Of a DNA stretch of 64,000 nt, positions 2,601-23,220 are shown piece by piece. The position numbers were made by a program, and so were the translations under genes. Positions within the stretch are counted from its first letter, which is position 1; every line of letters begins with the position of its first letter. The DNA is from Podospora anserina (Eukaryota): positions 3,038,001 to 3,102,000 of the forward strand of contig CM030338.1 in assembly GCA_017654855.1 (NCBI GenBank), written 5' to 3'. The notes below the pieces were generated by a model. The model searched no databases and was not told the origin of the DNA. It saw only the letters and a program-made list of their open reading frames with translations.

Positions 2601-3544
2601 CGTGAGACAGGTAAGGGCCCGTCACCCCCGGACCCGAGAGTGTGGTTGAACGAACGGGCGGGCGGGATCGATTTCGGGACGGAGGGTAAGGTGAGTTGAC
2701 GAAAAATAAGGGCCCAACTGCTGTGTTCTTGTCCTTCTTGAATCGTTGCAAGTATCGGTGTGAACCACCAAATCGGCGGGGGTGATAGGTAAAGATCTAC
2801 AGCTTTAAATCCGCAAGAAACCCGAGATAAAAAAGACACTAGAACCCTCTCCCGGGTCCCGAGTATATACATACACAAATACGAATCCACGCCGAGAAAA
2901 CTGGGCACCGTCAAAATCAACCTCAAAGTGCAGGGCTGAGCTTGCTGACATCGCTCTCCATCCAACTGCAGCTCGCCCTGCCCGCCCATCACCAGGCGGG
3001 GCAAATCGTGGGGCTCTCCATAATCTCCACTGATGTCCCCCAGGATCATGCATATACCGATGGATAAACGATCAGTACCAGATTCCCAGATTCCAATCGT
3101 CTAGAAATGCACACAAACTCGTCATATCAAACTCATTACAGCTATAAATAATGCAAGGGCTATGTACGCACACCATGTCATCTATGCAATCTACCCAACT
3201 AAATGACGACCACCCAAACCCCCCCCCCCTTATTCATACCTCAACACTCTCCCACCTCGCTATCATCCCGCCTCCTCGTGAGAACCAATGCCGGATTTCC
3301 GTACATGTTGTAATTCCAACTACTACCAAAAAAAACAAAAAAAAACAAAAAAAAAAACTAAAAAAAAAAAATTAAAATAAAAAAAAACTCCATGTATATG
3401 TCATTATGCAAAAAAAGAAGGAAAAAAACAAGTTTCTGAATCTGGAACACTCATCAACGCCTAAACCCCCTATCCTACCCTACGCCTTTCAAATCAAACC
3501 GATATTACAGAAAGGAAAAAAAAAACATGGAAAGAAGCCTGTTG

Positions 3545-15052: not shown

Positions 15053-18000
15053 ATGGCTCAGCGTCCCAACACACACCTGCCCGCGGTGCGTTTGGAGACT
15101 GAGAAGAATCTGGGCATCACCCATCGTTCTGCCGCCCTGAACTTTGCCTGGACTGGCGATATCCGCAAGCGGTAAGTCTTTCTGTCCTTGATCGCTGTCT
15201 TTTGTGATTTTTCTGACTGGAAAATGCAGATATACCGATTTCCTTGTGTATGAGATCAACATAGATGGTTCTGTCATCCACCTTTACGACTTCATTGAAG
15301 ACAAGCCGGCTCACTCCCCGACTGAGAGTCAGTTTCAGGTGAGATGGTTGTCTTGATGTGATTCGACCAACAGACTGTGCTAACCCCATTTTCCAGAACA
15401 AATCGACTGCTCTTGTTCTCGCTTCGACTGGGCCCCGCAAGCAGGAAAACAAAGCCCCTATTGTGGTCCAAGAGATTTCCAAGGAGGACCAGGAGAAGCT
15501 CATCAAGTTGATCGGCGAGTCGACAGCCAAGAAGCTCATCGAGGTCGACAACAATGTGCAACGCAAAGTGCTCATGAGCGCCGAAAACCGCACTGTCGTC
15601 TTCGACCCGATTGACGATCGCTCTCAACGTGCCGAAGTCCATCAGGAGATTCGTCGCATCTTCAACAGCCGTGTGGAGACTGTTGCCAACTCTGAAGGCG
15701 TCATCACTGCGACCCCCTCCAAGTGGGCTGTCACCCGTGGCAGCAGTAACAACCGCACTCCTAGCCAGACATTTGGTTCCCGTCGCGACAATACTAGAGG
15801 TCAAGATCGCAACGTCAGCTTCGCCAAGCTGGGTGGTGAATATCTCCACTTCACCATGTACAAGGAGAACAAGGATACGATGGACGCAATCAACACCATC
15901 GCCCGTCTCTTGAAGATCAAGGCCACAAACTTTGGCTTTGCCGGCACCAAAGATCGCCGTGCCGCGACTGTTCAGCGGATCAGTGTCCGCTACCAGAGGG
16001 CCTCGAACCTCACTTGGTTGAACACCCGTATCCCCAACGTCAAGGTTGGTGATTTTGTGCACAAGGAGCAGCCGCTCTCTCTTGGTCAACACGGTGGCAA
16101 TGAGTTCATCATCACTCTCAAGAACTGCTCCCCTCTCGGTGGCAGTGAATGCTCTGTTGCTCAGCGCATGAAGATGATTCAACAGACGGTCGAGTGCGGC
16201 CTTGCCTATCTTAAGCATAACGGATACATCAACTACTTTGGTCTTCAGCGCTTTGGCACCCACACCATCGGGACCCACCTTCTTGGCATGAAGATCCTGC
16301 AAGGCGATTTCGAGGGCGTCATCGACGCCATTCTTCATGTCGATGATCACTACATTCAGGAGGCCTTCAATAACGTTGGCTCATCTCACGGGACCAAGCG
16401 TGATTTTGATCACAGCCACGGCAATGGCAACAACGCCAGCACTGCCAACCGCGATGACTACGATCGTGCCCGCGCCATCACCATCTGGAAGACTTCCAAG
16501 AATGCGAGCAAGGCTGTGGAGGGCCTACCCAAGAGATTCAGCTCTGAAATCGCTCTCATCCGCCACCTTGGCAAGAACCCAAAGGACTTTACGGGTGCAA
16601 TTCTGAGCATCACGCGTAGTATGCGAATGATGTACATTCACGCCTTCCAGTCCTACGTCTGGAACCACGCTGCATCCCGTCGTTGGTCCAAGTATGGCGC
16701 TCGTGTCATTGAAGGCGACATTGTCTTGAACGAGGATGTTGAGGATGCCACCACTCGTCCCAGCGAGGATGATGAGTTCGACACTTACGACGACAATGAG
16801 GTCGCTCATGTCTTCCCCCAAGCTCACGTGGTTACTGCCGAGGACCTGGCCGCTGAGAAGTATACCATCTTCGATGTCGTTCTCCCCACTCCCGGCTATG
16901 ATGTCGTCTATCCCCAGAATGAGATTGGCGAGTTCTACGTCGAGTTCATGGGCAAGGAGGAAAATGGCGGTCTGAATCCCTACGACATGCGTCGCAAGAA
17001 TCGGGAGTTCTCTCTCAGCGGCAGCTACCGCGCCCTCATGGGTCGCTTCATTACTGAGCCCCAATACGCCATTCGGGCTTATGTCGATGACACTGAGCAA
17101 ATGTACCCCACTGACTTGGATTTTGCTACTCACAAGAAGGCCCAGCAGAAGAAGTCTCTGGCCCAGCCCAAGCCAGCCAGCCAGGCTGCCAACTCTTGGA
17201 ATGCCTTTGCCGCCAATCCTGCGGCATTTGATGATGCTTTGGCTGAGTTTCAGCGCCGGCGCAAGGCTAGCGAAGGGCCTGCTTCTGAAGTCAAGACAAT
17301 CATCAAGGAGACTTGGGTCGAAACTGGTGTCAACGGCTCCGCTAAGCGCGTCAAGGTTGCCCGTCATCAGCAAGAGATTGAGTCACCGCCCGAGACTCCT
17401 CAGGCCGACGCTTTGACCAGGCGTTCTTCTGATCCCGAGCTTCAGGCTCGCATGAAAGCCGCGCTGTTCCCTGGGAACACGGAGGCTCCGGCTGTCGTCC
17501 CCCAAGAGGATGTCGAAATGGTCGACACCCCTTGCGCCCCTACACCTGCCAGGGGCCCTGCTTTCCTCTTGAAGTCGCCCCCCGTCGGCAAGGGTGTTTC
17601 CCTTCTTGACTCGTACTCTCCCATCGCTGAGCCTGCCGCTCCTCTCCAGCAGAAGCCTGGTATTTTGTCTGGGGATGGCGGTCTTGTCGTCCCGAAGGGT
17701 CCCAATACCTCTGGCACCCGAGGTCTTTCTGACACGTTCTACGCCGCTGGCGGGGACGACCCTTTTGTTGGCCAAACTTCGCCTCCTACGACCATTGTGA
17801 AGAAAGAAGAGAGCGACTCGGTTGCCAAGTCAGAATCCGACGAATGGTACGGGAAGAAGGAATTGGCTGGTCTTCTCGGCGGCCCGACTGCTCTCGTCAA
17901 GACTGAGCAGGAAGACGACGCCGCGCCCTCTACCTCCCAGGCGCTCGTCAAGGTTGAGGACGACTGCAAGTCGGATTCCAGTGTCGAAGAGTTGATCAAT

Positions 18001-18186
18001 GGTGTCCCCTTGCCCAAATTCCACACGGCGTCCAACAACCCGTTGTTGCCTCCCAAGAACATTGTCGACGTCGACACTCTCGACCCCAGGGCGCGCAAGA
18101 TTGCTGTCATTCTCAAATTTCAGCTCAAGACTAGCAACTATGCCACTGTTGTGCTCCGTGAGCTCATGGGTACTACCGTCGAGTAG
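15053..18186 (+). CDS. PUS7: TruD-family pseudouridine synthase Pus7
   Basis: IRKRYTDFLVYEI spans intron 15172-15229, with a second intron at 15339-15396. Catalytic motif FAGTKDRRA, plus GNEFIITL, INYFGLQRFG, HAFQSYVWN and C-terminal FQLKTSNYATVVLRELM. Confidence 0.93.
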
Positions 18187-18605
18187 TGTGCCCACTTTTC
18201 AACACCAACCCTACAGGTGGCTTTGCCTGATCAACCGAAGCTATCCACAACAGGACGAGATTGTACTGAAATTTTTTGTCCCTCTGTTTTCTGATCGCAT
18301 TTGAGGCGATGTCATCGCGTCTCAGCAACATCTAGTGGAGCACATGGGCTCCTGATTGCCACGATGGTTCATTTTGCCGTATACACATTCACGGATACGC
18401 GGCCGCTTTTCATGGCTCGATCCTACAAGCATAACTATTCACTTTCTTCGACTCAAGCATAACTACATCAACTGTCTTCGACCTGTACACTATTCGCTGC
18501 ACGACTACTGCCGTACCAAGCACATCGACTCGATTTTCTTGCAAGCATTTCAGCAAGCGTTGCCATTAAGTTAGCGACCTCGAGACATTGCAAGCCATGT
18601 TCAAA

Positions 18606-18792
18606 GCCAAGGACTTTTTTGTTCATTCTCGCGTCGGAAGCTCCCATTCAGTTGGGGACATGTCAGAAAGCCGCCCTCACTGAGTTGGGGGGGCACACTA
18701 TTAGCGGGAAGCTCCCATTAAGTTGGGGACATTACCGAAACAAAGTCTTTGGCACGACGGGAGGTTCTCATCGAGTTGGGGACGTTACCGAG
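18606..18792 (+). repeat. Cluster of 3-4 repeated hairpin units (candidate structured RNA element)
   Basis: Units resembling GGAAGCTCCCATTNAGTTGGGGACATTACCG at 18636-18670, 18707-18740 and 18760-18792. A partial unit lies at 18674-18696. Bases 18606-18623 are complementary to 18739-18753. Confidence 0.75.
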
Positions 18793-19584
18793 TTTTGAGG
18801 CATTGGGGGTTCTTTTCCTCTTCATTGGTCGTCATTGTCTTTTTTTTTCTTTCCTTCGGGGTGGGTTTGCTTTGCGTGGAGTTCCGGTTCGGCATACATA
18901 GAAATGGTGTTTGGGATTTATAGACGGATGGATGGGACAAGGGCAAAAGTTTGGGATGGTTGTTTTCTTCATTCTCTTTCTCTCTCATTTCTTTTCTTCT
19001 TTTGGTCGTCAAGATTTGATTGATTATAAGAGATACCCACTTTTGCGATTTTGAGAAGAGGAGAAAAGGAAGATATCCCCTGTGAGGAAGGGAAGAAAAT
19101 GGGAGCTGGGATTTGTAGGGAGAGAAGATTGGTGGGATTATGGCGAGCATTCCGAGACATCACAACACAAGGACAACACTAGGTTTTCGGTTTTCGGTTT
19201 TCTATTTCCCTCTCGGGAAAAGAGGGAAGGGTAGTAGATGATGGACTTTGTTAGCTAGTGTGTGATGGCTGGGGGTAATGAGGAGAAGTCTACTGCTATA
19301 TTCTTCTGTTTTGTTTTGGTGATGTGATCATGTATGTTACAAGCAGTTGAAGCATGGTCCTCACTGAAGTGATAACGACACCTAAATCCAATCTTGAAAC
19401 CGCCTTGTAATTTGTGAAGCCATCCACATCCCCAATTGTCACAGCATCAAAGAAAAATGTATTGTAAATAGGCCCAGCCCGTGTATATATTTCATCTCGG
19501 TAAAATCTTTTTGTAAAATACTCGACCTAAAATCTCAAGGCATTCATCATTAAGGATAGAGACAAGAAGGCGTAAAATAAGTAA

Positions 19585-19611
<27 letters not shown>
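19585..19611. repeat. (GT)n microsatellite
   Basis: Perfect GT run, directly visible. Confidence 0.9.
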
Positions 19612-19615
<4 letters not shown>

Positions 19616-19921
19616 GTTGTTGTAGAATGTAGTTCGTGCGTGTTGGCCCAACATCATCATCCATCCCTTCCTGCCAGCGCCAACCTGCCCCCCCCAACCC
19701 CAACCCCAACCCCAATTCCCATATTGCCGTCCGTATATCTAACCAAGATAAAGTTGGAAATATCGTACCAGATCACCACCCCTAAACCCCGACCGTGACT
19801 CCTAGCCATAACAAGCCAGTATCTTCTTCTCTTCTTCCTAGTCAAAATGTCGTTTCAATCACCCCTTCCATTTCGGAGAGGCTTCTATCCTCAACTCTCC
19901 CACATCTTCACACTCTTCCCC

Positions 19922-21590
19922 TCACTTCTTATCATCCCACCCCCAAACCTGCGTCAAATACTTGCTCATATTCACCCTCTTGGTCTTCATCTCCACCATC
20001 CAAGGGTGCTCCAGCATCCTCCACGGCGTTGCCCTCCTAAGCGGATCCTTCTCCAGACTATTCCCCCCAAAAAAAGTCAGCAATCTTCCCAACCATTTCC
20101 CTTTGTCGGCGATCACTTACCAGCACTCAATAAAATACTTAAAACTATCACTCCAAAAAATACTCGCCTCGGGCTCGTCCTTCAGCTTGGGAATCGGCTG
20201 CCTCACAATATACGTCAACAAATCAATCAACCCCGCCCTAGGCTGCATCTCGGTCCCGTCCGCAGGAAACGGAAACCTATGCTGCGCAACCTCCAGCAGC
20301 GTCACGCCCGTCGACCAGACGTCGCTCGTGATGGTGTATGACTGCCCCGTGATCCGTTCCGGAGCCATGTAGTAACTCGTTCCGATAAAAGTGTTGGCAT
20401 CTCCCTTGGTGCCAAACTCACCCGACACACCAAAGTCGCAAAGCTTAACCTCCCCGTTGCGGCAGAGGAGGATGTTGCTCGGTTTGATGTCACGGTGAAT
20501 GATCTTTTTGCTGTGGAGGTAGGTCAGGCCCTGGAGGACGCCCTCGGAAATCTTCCCGAGGACTTTTTCTCCTGTGCGGCCGCCGAGGCGCTTGACTTCC
20601 TTGTAGATGGAGTCGAGCGAGCCGCCCTCGCAGAATTCCATCGCGATGGAGATGGTGGCGGTCGAGGGGTCGACAAAGGCGCCGTAGTACCTGCAGATGT
20701 GCTCCGACATGCAGTCCTTGTTGAAGCCGAGCTCGCGGACGATTTGGCGTTTGACGTCGGGGTCGGGGTTGGTTGTGATGACCTTTTGGGTACGTTAGTT
20801 TAGACATGGTGATGGATAAAGGGGTCAAAAAGGCGCGCACCTTGAGAGCGAAAACCGTGTTCCCCCCCTTGAGCTTACACCTCGTCACCGCACCACCTGC
20901 ACCCTCTCCCAAACTCCCCAGCTCGACAATCCTCTTCTCCATGCTCACGATCCTCCAGCCTTCATCGTCCAGATCCTCCACATCCGCGCTCCTCGCCTTG
21001 TCTAGGCTCAGCTTGTCGAAGCTCTCCAGCCCGTGTAGGCTGTTTTCTCTTTCCATGCCGACGCTCTCGCTGGCGTTTGAGTAGAGCGATCCCACGGCTG
21101 ATACCGGGTCCCCTGTCCCGGCGTGTCTAGTCGGTCCAATGCCATACTGCTCAGCAAACGACAAAGCGCTGAACTGCGACCCCGCACTGGTTGGGTTGCT
21201 CGCACGGCCGTCAAAGGGGCCGAAAGAGCCGGATCTGGAGTGGGCGGCGCTCGATTCGCTGCCGCCGCTGGCGGATTGGAGACTGAGGGCGGGCTTGATG
21301 TGTTGTGGTTGTTCTTGCGGGACCACGCTGCTGCTTCCCATGGGGGTAGCAAGATGAAGAGTCGGGAGTGCTGGTCTACCTGGGGCCGGGCCGGGGTTGC
21401 TGAGTGGTTTTGCGTTGGGGGATGGAGGGATGGCGAGGCCGAGACGGGGAGCACGTCCGCCGGAGCGGTTGCCTCCTGGGAGGGCGGGACGGAGGAGGGG
21501 AACGCTGTTCATCTTTGGGACGGAGGAGCCGGGCGAGGGCTGTGGTGATGGGAACTCCAGGGTAAGGTTTGGTGGCTGAGGCTTTGACAT
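19922..21590 (-). CDS. MKK1: Cell-wall-integrity MAP kinase kinase (Mkk1/Mek1)
   Basis: [45 protein letters not shown] and SDVWSTG. Introns at 20840-20783 and 20120-20058. N-terminal docking-like [11 protein letters not shown]. Confidence 0.92.
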
Positions 21591-23220
21591 GGTTGGCAAT
21601 GGTTAGTTGAGGATATCTACAATGATACTGGAGAGGACTGATTGTTCCAAGGTTCCGGTGGGATGGGTCCACCAGTCGCCTGATTGTTTGAGAAAAGCCC
21701 CGGCACAGACAGGCACTGACGGGGAGAGGGAGAGAGAAAGAGATGAGAAATTTTTATTGATTGGAAAGAAAAAGGTCCATACCCGAGGCGCAGCGGCCTC
21801 GCTGCTCTGATTGTCTGAAGCGACCATTCTGGGCGCTGTTGGAAACTCCTGCGCTGTCGGGTCACCTCACAGCAGAGGAGGGGGGTTAGCGGGGAACGGG
21901 GCGGTAGCTAGTCGAGTAAACAGGGCTGCTAGACTCGGCGATGGGCGAACGATCGAGTCGTGCGAATGCAACTGTTGATTATCTCGAGGATGTAGGGCTG
22001 AGAAAGGTCCCCTTTCGAGATATCTGAGGGCAAATGGCCAAATGCGATGCGGTGCAGTGCGGTGCGGTGGAAAGAGCTCGTGCGACGAACAGCAGCGAGC
22101 CGACAGCGATGGAACGCACGGATAAGGCAGGCAGGCAAGGCACGGCTTTCAGGTGGTGGGGTGGTGTGGTGCTCGCTAGGGATATGGCCGGTTTGGAATC
22201 GGGCCAGATCTGTCCTGTCCTGTCCTCGATGAGTTGTCCTTGACTACGGAGTAGGGAGTCCTGGGTGACCGCAGATTCGGGAAGAGGGAGGAAGAGGGAT
22301 TTGAGGGTGATGGAGGAGTTGAGGTGGTGGTCAGAGATAGAATAGTCCTAGATAGATATTTGCCCCTGTGCTGCTGAGACCAGACGAACAAGACAAGAAA
22401 GACATCTGCACGTTCGAGGCAAGCCGGGCGCCTGTGGTTCTAGGACCAGGGGGCCTCTGAGGTTTGCTTGGCCGGCCGCTGGCCAATGCGAGGACCCGGG
22501 TGTCCAGGGGTGGCCGTTGGGGGTGAAAGGCGGGGCACCGTCTGGTGCCATCACCAGACAAAGACTTTCTTAAACGTCCAAGTTTCAAAGTTTGAACTAG
22601 CGAACATTTTGACAGCATTGTCCATTTCCATTTTCCATGATCTCGTGGCTAAGGTACCTGAAAAGCGGAAATTACACGGGGCCGCCTCGACCGATATGGC
22701 CATTTTAGGACTTTATCCTGAGAAGAAAGGAAGGCTGTCATGACTGGTGGCTGATGATGAATGGCTTTTCGGTCAAGATGGGATTACATCTTAGCAAAGC
22801 TAATTACCAGCACATGCCGCCCTGAGGCAAGGAAGAGCGCGGAGGAGCCGTGGGAGCCGTCCCCGTACACTTCGTACACACCACTGACGTGAGCAGTTCA
22901 ACAAGCGACGAAGGGTGCATGGATCGCCAGAAATTACCTACTGTTGAATGGACGCCTCGGACACATCGCGGCTGTCTGTTGGTTCACTCCGTGAGAACTT
23001 GATGTGACGGCGTCGAATATCAAAAAGGCAACGGCTTTTCCCAAGCGCCCAGCCCTAGTCCCAATAAGCGCCCGCCCACACAGTGGGGTTGATGCATCTT
23101 GTCGTTCCTGTGGGTCGCAAAAGCCGCCCCACATTTTAGACGTCAAACCTCCAACCAAAATTTTTGATGGCAGCAACACATCTCATCGAGGACTATATCT
23201 CATCACACCACACAGACGTC

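Follow-up and report, generated by a model that had tools for sequence, protein, structure and literature searches.

A hairpin repeat array downstream of a PUS7-type gene in Podospora anserina is a plausible lineage-specific structured RNA candidate

Does a cluster of short hairpin-like repeats lying downstream of a pseudouridine synthase gene of Podospora anserina belong to a structured RNA, or are its hairpins a by-product of local duplication in non-coding DNA? We addressed this question in a 64,000-nucleotide stretch of contig CM030338.1 (assembly GCA_017654855.1, positions 3,038,001 to 3,102,000), hereafter the window, to which all coordinates below refer. On the plus strand, a stop-to-stop frame of 947 aa at 15343-18186 encodes a PUS7-type pseudouridine synthase (Pfam TruD, E = 1.1e-64; PUS7L_N, E = 1e-4). 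On the minus strand, 19922-21602 carries a gene delineated from spliced RNA contigs and their translations, with its stop at about 19922 and introns at 20058-20120 and 20781-20838. We take this gene to be a MAP kinase kinase (MAPKK) from its kinase-domain sequence as read, not from a family search; Pfam returned no family for the one MAPKK frame scanned, the N-terminal one. The two genes are convergent and separated by 1.7 kb, so the repeat array sits between two 3′ ends. It starts 373 nt and ends 597 nt past the PUS7 stop codon, and the distance of 420-600 nt given in a preliminary description of this DNA is borne out by the ORF end at 18186.

Across 18100-19500 there are 16 ORFs beginning with ATG, of 25-121 aa; the longest (121 aa, minus strand), the sole one of the 16 searched, has no homologue, and Pfam found no family in a 111-aa open frame running across the array. 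A protein gene hidden at the array therefore lacks support. A tRNA origin was rejected, as ARAGORN detected no tRNA over 18000-20000.

The array consists of a quasi-palindromic unit of 20 nt present in five copies, which have diverged and share a single orientation within 225 nt. The consensus of the unit comprises a 5′ arm CYCYCA, a hexaloop NNNAGU and a 3′ arm UGGGG. We named the copies E, A, B, C and D by the start of the 20-nt core and aligned them as five paralogues. Copy C (18711-18730, plus strand; GCTCCCA-TTAAGT-TGGGGAC) equals the consensus, and copy A (18640-18659, plus; GCTCCCA-TTCAGT-TGGGGAC) differs from it in the loop. Copy B (18673-18692, plus) reads GCCCTCA-CTGAGT-TGGGGGG, and copy D (18764-18783, plus), GTTCTCA-TCGAGT-TGGGGAC, forms seven of seven pairs, including two G.U. 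These four account for the hairpins already described, whose hexaloops ending in AGU (TTCAGT, CTGAGT, TTAAGT and TCGAGT) were read correctly. Outside the stretch covered by that description lies a fifth, degenerate copy, E (18559-18578, plus; GTTGCCA-TTAAGT-TAGCGAC), in which one C-G pair is flipped to G-C and one C.A mismatch occurs; the repeat search lists it as a weaker member at 18559-18576. As RNA, the hexaloops of copies A to E are thus UUCAGU, CUGAGU, UUAAGU, UCGAGU and UUAAGU.

The motif CYCAYYNAGTTGGGG has four matches in the 64 kb, all on the plus strand and starting at 18643, 18676, 18714 and 18767, against 0.13 expected; none of 100 shuffles reached four, and outside 18643-18781 the window is devoid of matches. 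The element AGTTGGGG is unchanged in four of the five copies. The repeat search returned two families, one of 18 nt and one of 34 nt; the 34-nt unit is common to A, C and D (the first, third and fourth of the copies described earlier) at identities of 88% and 68%. Copies B and E have only the 20-nt core in common with the others, their flanks being unalignable. A covariance model of the unit recovered all five copies at 16-48 bits (A, 39.5; B, 16.2 over model positions 11-31; C, 48.2; D, 43.2; E, 37.5).

The best further match to this model in the 64 kb, at 3179-3217 on the minus strand (17.2 bits, rough E 0.023), scores just above copy B. This match shares CATTTAGTTGGGTA and is preceded by 11 consecutive Gs; as it does not retain the stem, it is probably due to chance. 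Two other features were noted near the array. A 28-nt unit is duplicated in tandem at 18426-18482 (2.0 copies, 86% matches), 80 nt upstream, which indicates that this stretch duplicates readily, and past the array, 18805-18860 forms a pyrimidine-rich tract.

To compare pairing among the five paralogous copies of this one locus, we scored a 7-bp inner helix and a 3-bp CGG/CCG outer helix, 50 cells in total. Standard pairs fill 82% of the cells, compared with 69.7 ± 3.4% after shuffling of partners (none of 500 shuffles as high), a control that overstates significance for related sequences, which can beat all shuffles without any structure. The covariation score was 0.34 against 0.19 in shuffles (2 of 500 as high), and slid controls were 32-52% paired. 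Within the inner helix, 31 of 35 cells are paired (88.6%). Random placement of the 15 observed core substitutions (11 transitions, 4 transversions) reached that level in 0.7% of 100,000 trials, and the 25 of 35 cells observed under Watson-Crick pairing alone were reached in 2.6%; this simulation treats the copies as independent, three substitutions are common to more than one copy and may be inherited, and the array was selected for study because it looked hairpin-like.

Pairing among the copies is kept beyond random substitution, in line with the earlier observation that changes between copies preserve it. Copy E carries G-C where the other copies have C-G, a double transversion that restores the pair. 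At pair 12-29, copy B has C-G, copies D and E have U-A, and copies A and C have a C.A mismatch. Of the changes that preserve pairing, the majority are C/T transitions facing G, and such changes are unable to break a pair. The stem sequence as such is not protected, since 10 of the 15 core substitutions fall in stem positions, where 10.5 would be expected.

Thermodynamic prediction favoured structure on the plus strand. Folded as plus-strand RNA, 18604-18755, whose boundaries were picked after an inverted repeat had been seen, reached -55.8 kcal/mol, compared with -42.95 ± 3.99 kcal/mol in shuffles (z = -3.22; 0 of 200 as good). The minus strand of the same interval gave z = -1.53, with 14 of 200 shuffles as good, and the wider interval 18596-18802 gave z = -2.25 (plus) and -0.42 (minus). 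Seven G.U cells, together with one in the closing stem, turn into A.C on the minus strand, and the structure therefore favours the plus strand, as had been proposed from the G-U pairs. Smaller and sliding units were unremarkable: 35-nt units folded singly had z values of 0.50 (A), -1.82 (B), -1.14 (C), -2.48 (D, at -13.7 kcal/mol) and -0.08 (E), and plus-strand windows of 150 nt slid over the array had z of about -1.0, placing them outside the 8 lowest of 95 windows (up to about 19320).

The inverted repeat that bounds this domain joins 18606-18620 to 18739-18753 on the plus strand, with 13 of 15 matches (87% complementarity) around 118 enclosed nucleotides. Its presence upholds the closing stem proposed earlier. 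When 18400-19000 was dinucleotide-shuffled 100 times, five shuffles held an inverted repeat of equal quality, so that the stem is borderline when taken alone. In a partition-function fold of 18187-19300 (plus strand, 1,114 nt), the closing stem received pair probabilities of 0.94-1.00 (18606-18615 with 18744-18753), hairpin C 0.93-0.97 for its inner stem, hairpin E about 0.8 and hairpin D, which lies outside the closing stem, 0.6-0.7.

Copies A and B behaved differently from the earlier picture, in which the stem encloses three hairpins. As separate hairpins they have probabilities of at most 0.01; their arms and loops instead pair with each other to give one longer hairpin, a prediction explained by the complementarity of the two loops, UUCAGU and CUGAGU, over UCAG/CUGA. 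Because A is predicted to pair with B, the predicted domain inside the closing stem has two branches rather than three, and of the enclosed hairpins described only C is predicted to form as such. Long hairpins closed by CGG/CCG had likewise been proposed for copies C and D. They appear when each copy is folded alone, whereas in context the outer closure of copy C (CGG 18705-18707 with CCG 18735-18737, plus strand), a possible longer hairpin, has probability 0.00; that of copy D (CGG 18758-18760 with CCG 18788-18790, plus) has 0.54-0.57. The loops of C and E begin with the 4-nt palindrome UUAA and that of D with UCGA, which would allow loop-loop contacts.

To examine transcription, we compared four sequencing runs (X1, X8, X13 and X15) as contigs over 17000-21000, deducing their RNA nature from splicing. 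In X1, X8 and X13 alike, a single MAPKK contig lacks 20058-20120 and 20781-20838; both missing segments have CT..AC ends and are thus GT..AG introns of a minus-strand gene, which identifies the three runs as RNA. X15 has no splice joint and a flat depth, and is therefore DNA. All three RNA runs cover 18146-19269, array included, without gaps and without differences, so the locus is transcribed, and sampled words of 18400-19000 are present at 100% in 14 of 14 runs guessed to be RNA. The contig of X1 spans 17613-19298 (depth 26; PUS7 coding pieces just upstream, 2.9-3.9), that of X8 18146-19321 (depth 8.03; coding pieces, 3.6-4.3) and that of X13 17000-19269 (depth 55.7), the latter running on upstream for a further 860 nt. 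No splice joints occur in 17000-19321 of the RNA contigs. The array thus lies in a transcribed, unspliced stretch at 18146-19321 with no evident coding capacity, for which the contigs give no strand; likewise, a contig that spans PUS7 and the array does not prove a single molecule.

The right-hand ends of these contigs bear on the strand. RNA cover ends at 19298 (X1), 19321 (X8) and 19269 (X13) and returns at 19460, leaving 19322-19459 without RNA contig cover, while the DNA run X15 is continuous; 19572-19725 was left out of the comparison as a repeat. The gap at about 19300-19460 is a weak hint of a boundary between two convergent 3′ ends. Two convergent transcripts ending about 140 nt apart would place the array on plus-strand RNA. 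Over 17613-19321 the contig exceeds the PUS7 coding pieces just upstream in depth by a factor of 2 to 7 in two of the three RNA runs (X1 and X8), contig depth being a poor measure of expression; 3′ bias could account for the greater depth, as could an unannotated transcript of either strand that is more abundant. The four runs show no sequence differences over the 4 kb compared (17000-21000) and so offer no population variation to use.

Comparison with known RNA families and published elements yielded no counterpart. No Rfam 15 family reached its gathering score in any part of the window, which agrees with the earlier statement that no described family fits. Permissive scans (E up to 10) touched the array only with bxd_4 (16 bits, gathering score 40) and Ms_AS-8 (13.2 bits, gathering score 48), both at chance level. 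A metagenome collection held no match to the 22-nt motif, and a search of it for PUS7 relatives, based on the C-terminal 399 aa, gave 137 pattern matches, none of them confirmed. Of the papers found on Pus7, UTR stem-loops and Neurospora, none describes such an element by title and abstract, and term searches of the main texts of two structured-RNA screens in fungi (PMC5640933, PMC8216456) yielded no mention of PUS7. One fungal paper sharing 8-mers with the array (PMC8526985) contains them as cloning primers. The array is probably lineage-specific.

Several known hairpin systems resemble the array in part. Iron-responsive element (IRE) clusters in 3′ UTRs, represented in Rfam by IRE_I and IRE_II, present several hexaloop hairpins that bind one protein, and each element follows a rule of a CAGUGN hexaloop plus a bulged C in the 5′ arm. 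Like them, the array has several short hairpins, all in the same orientation and each with a loop of six bases, a possible 3′ UTR location and a partly invariant loop; in contrast to them, its loops are NNNAGU rather than CAGUGN, no bulged C is present, and no IRE model matched up to E = 10. Smaug/Vts1 hairpins carry a CNGGN loop and fungal Rnt1 hairpins an AGNN tetraloop, and both resemble the array as short stem-loops in fungal transcripts whose loop is read by a protein. None of the five array loops contains CNGG, however, and AGUU cannot be closed as a tetraloop in four of the five copies because the flanking bases do not pair. A G-quadruplex formed by the four GGGG runs also seems unlikely: the intervening loops would be 28-49 nt, and those of canonical quadruplexes are far shorter.

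How, then, might the array act? Our tentative preference, which we put forward as possible rather than probable, is a cis-acting multi-hairpin domain of a plus-strand RNA, the host being either an unusually long PUS7 3′ UTR of about 1.1 kb or an overlapping, more abundant transcript. In such an RNA, a closing stem of 10-12 bp (18606-18617 with 18742-18753) would enclose the composite A:B hairpin and hairpin C, with hairpins E and D flanking the enclosed domain. The similar loops, with their invariant A...AGU-U edge, would probably serve as a multivalent platform for an RNA-binding protein, and the bound protein would govern how stable the transcript is, which 3′ end it uses or where it is located. 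With more reserve, we suggest that this constitutes an undescribed fungal cis-regulatory RNA domain, in which selected hairpins with the invariant loop edge and the long closing stem recruit several copies of one RNA-binding protein to the long PUS7 3′ UTR or to a separate ncRNA. We regard the array as a plausible lineage-specific structured RNA candidate, not as an established new RNA class.

The hairpins may instead have been inherited without selection, an explanation that we consider possible but doubtful. In non-coding DNA that evolves fast, slippage or template switching would have copied a chance quasi-palindrome several times, and the resulting RNA would have no hairpin-dependent function. 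Quasi-palindrome correction by intrastrand template switching is a mutational mechanism from the bacterial and yeast literature; under neutral duplication, the apparent compensation would consist of transitions opposite G and, possibly, of such correction. The common orientation of all copies within 225 nt, the 34-nt unit shared by three of them, the separate 28-nt tandem duplication 80 nt upstream and the lack of another strong model copy in the 64 kb are what such duplication would leave behind, and the ordinary thermodynamics of single hairpins and sliding windows, together with a stem substitution count close to expectation (10 of 15, against 10.5), fit it as well. It accounts less readily for pairing kept above the level of random substitution (0.7% of simulations; 0 of 500 shuffles), for the double transversion that restores a pair in copy E, and for copies B and E, which retain just the 20-nt core although their flanks have diverged past alignment. 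Alternatively, 18606-18753 could be a 148-nt fragment of a small mobile element (a MITE or foldback element) bearing 15-nt terminal inverted repeats and internal palindromes, which we consider improbable. The array does resemble such elements in having some 150 nt bounded by 15-nt inverted repeats, of which 13 positions match around 118 nt. It differs from them in showing no target-site duplication (the flanks, ...TTCAAA and ACGACG..., have no common direct repeat), in leaving copies D and E beyond the inverted repeats, and in having no second strong copy in the 64 kb or match to the 22-nt motif in the metagenome collection; moreover, equal inverted repeats turn up in 5 of 100 shuffles.

Two further explanations assign the array a function other than that of a structured platform. 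The copies could form a homotypic cluster of C2H2 zinc-finger sites reading TTGGGG in DNA, exerting upstream or bidirectional control over an unannotated transcript that would run rightwards over about 18850-19300 or leftwards, antisense to the PUS7 3′ end; we judge this unlikely. The consensus of Adr1 is TTGGRG, as given in Table 2 of PMC3897899, and TTGGGG fits it in four of the five copies; AGTTGGGG is invariant in four of five. In an arrangement that may recall an Adr1-type upstream activating sequence (UAS), a G-rich half-site faces an inverted C-rich one and the sites are clustered. The pyrimidine-rich tract at 18805-18860 after the array, the Watson-Crick palindromy above chance (2.6%) and the deeper downstream contig in two of three RNA runs (X1 and X8), a hint of a separate transcript from a poor measure of expression, would also suit DNA sites. 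Unlike such a UAS, the array lies inside transcribed sequence, with RNA contigs passing straight through it, and between convergent genes, where no promoter is needed: it is not upstream of the flanking promoters, since both flanking genes point their 3′ ends at it. The right half of the unit is invariant and the left half varies; read on the other strand, the left halves are TGGGAG, TGAGGG, TGGGAG, TGAGAA and TGGCAA, none of the five fitting TTGGRG, so that the left half-site is degenerate. Copy E lacks the consensus, having TTAGCG for TTGGGG, yet keeps its pairing by a compensating change, which fits structure rather than sequence-specific DNA reading. For a hidden gene under such control, the longest of the 16 ORFs and the Pfam scan of the frame over the array provided no conserved ORF. 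The preliminary description had also suggested an autoregulatory decoy, with the hairpins in the 3′ UTR of PUS7 bound or modified by the Pus7 enzyme itself; this idea, which we think very improbable, found no support beyond the position of the array downstream of PUS7 on the sense strand. A regular-expression scan of 18550-18800 (plus strand) for UNUAR found no instance, which extends to the whole interval the earlier remark that the loops lack this motif, and the array may not belong to the PUS7 mRNA.

To our knowledge, few structured cis-elements are known in filamentous-fungal mRNAs beyond the TPP riboswitch and the few dozen candidates that comparative screens have put forward. If the structured-domain reading were confirmed, a multi-hairpin element would add a directly testable motif to these mRNAs, and it would explain why more than 1 kb of transcribed sequence follows a housekeeping RNA-modification gene. 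If the array instead arose by neutral duplication, it would serve as a useful warning that paralogous quasi-palindromes can mimic covariation.

Further features were observed between the array and MAPKK. A short RNA contig covers 19460-19571, its record extending about 40 nt further into 19572-19612, at depths of 121.8 (X1) and 144.4 (X13), compared with 26-56 on its left side. The excess is not due to a genomic repeat, the depth of the DNA run X15 being flat here at 45.6; the depth ratio to the MAPKK contig is inconsistent, being 39.7 in X1 and 639.7 in X13. The minus strand reads AUGAUGA at 19543-19549, with a weak Rfam C/D-box match to snoMe28S-U3344 (20.5 bits, gathering score 50) and no clear D box seen. 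A small stable RNA could account for the contig at 19460-19571, as could the end of the MAPKK 3′ UTR. Farther right, at 19684-19716, the minus strand, which is the MAPKK sense strand, carries four tandem TTGGGG followed by extra Gs, the same hexamer that forms the hairpin 3′ arm on the plus strand, and this run adjoins a (TG)n microsatellite (in a region noted with 19585-19613).
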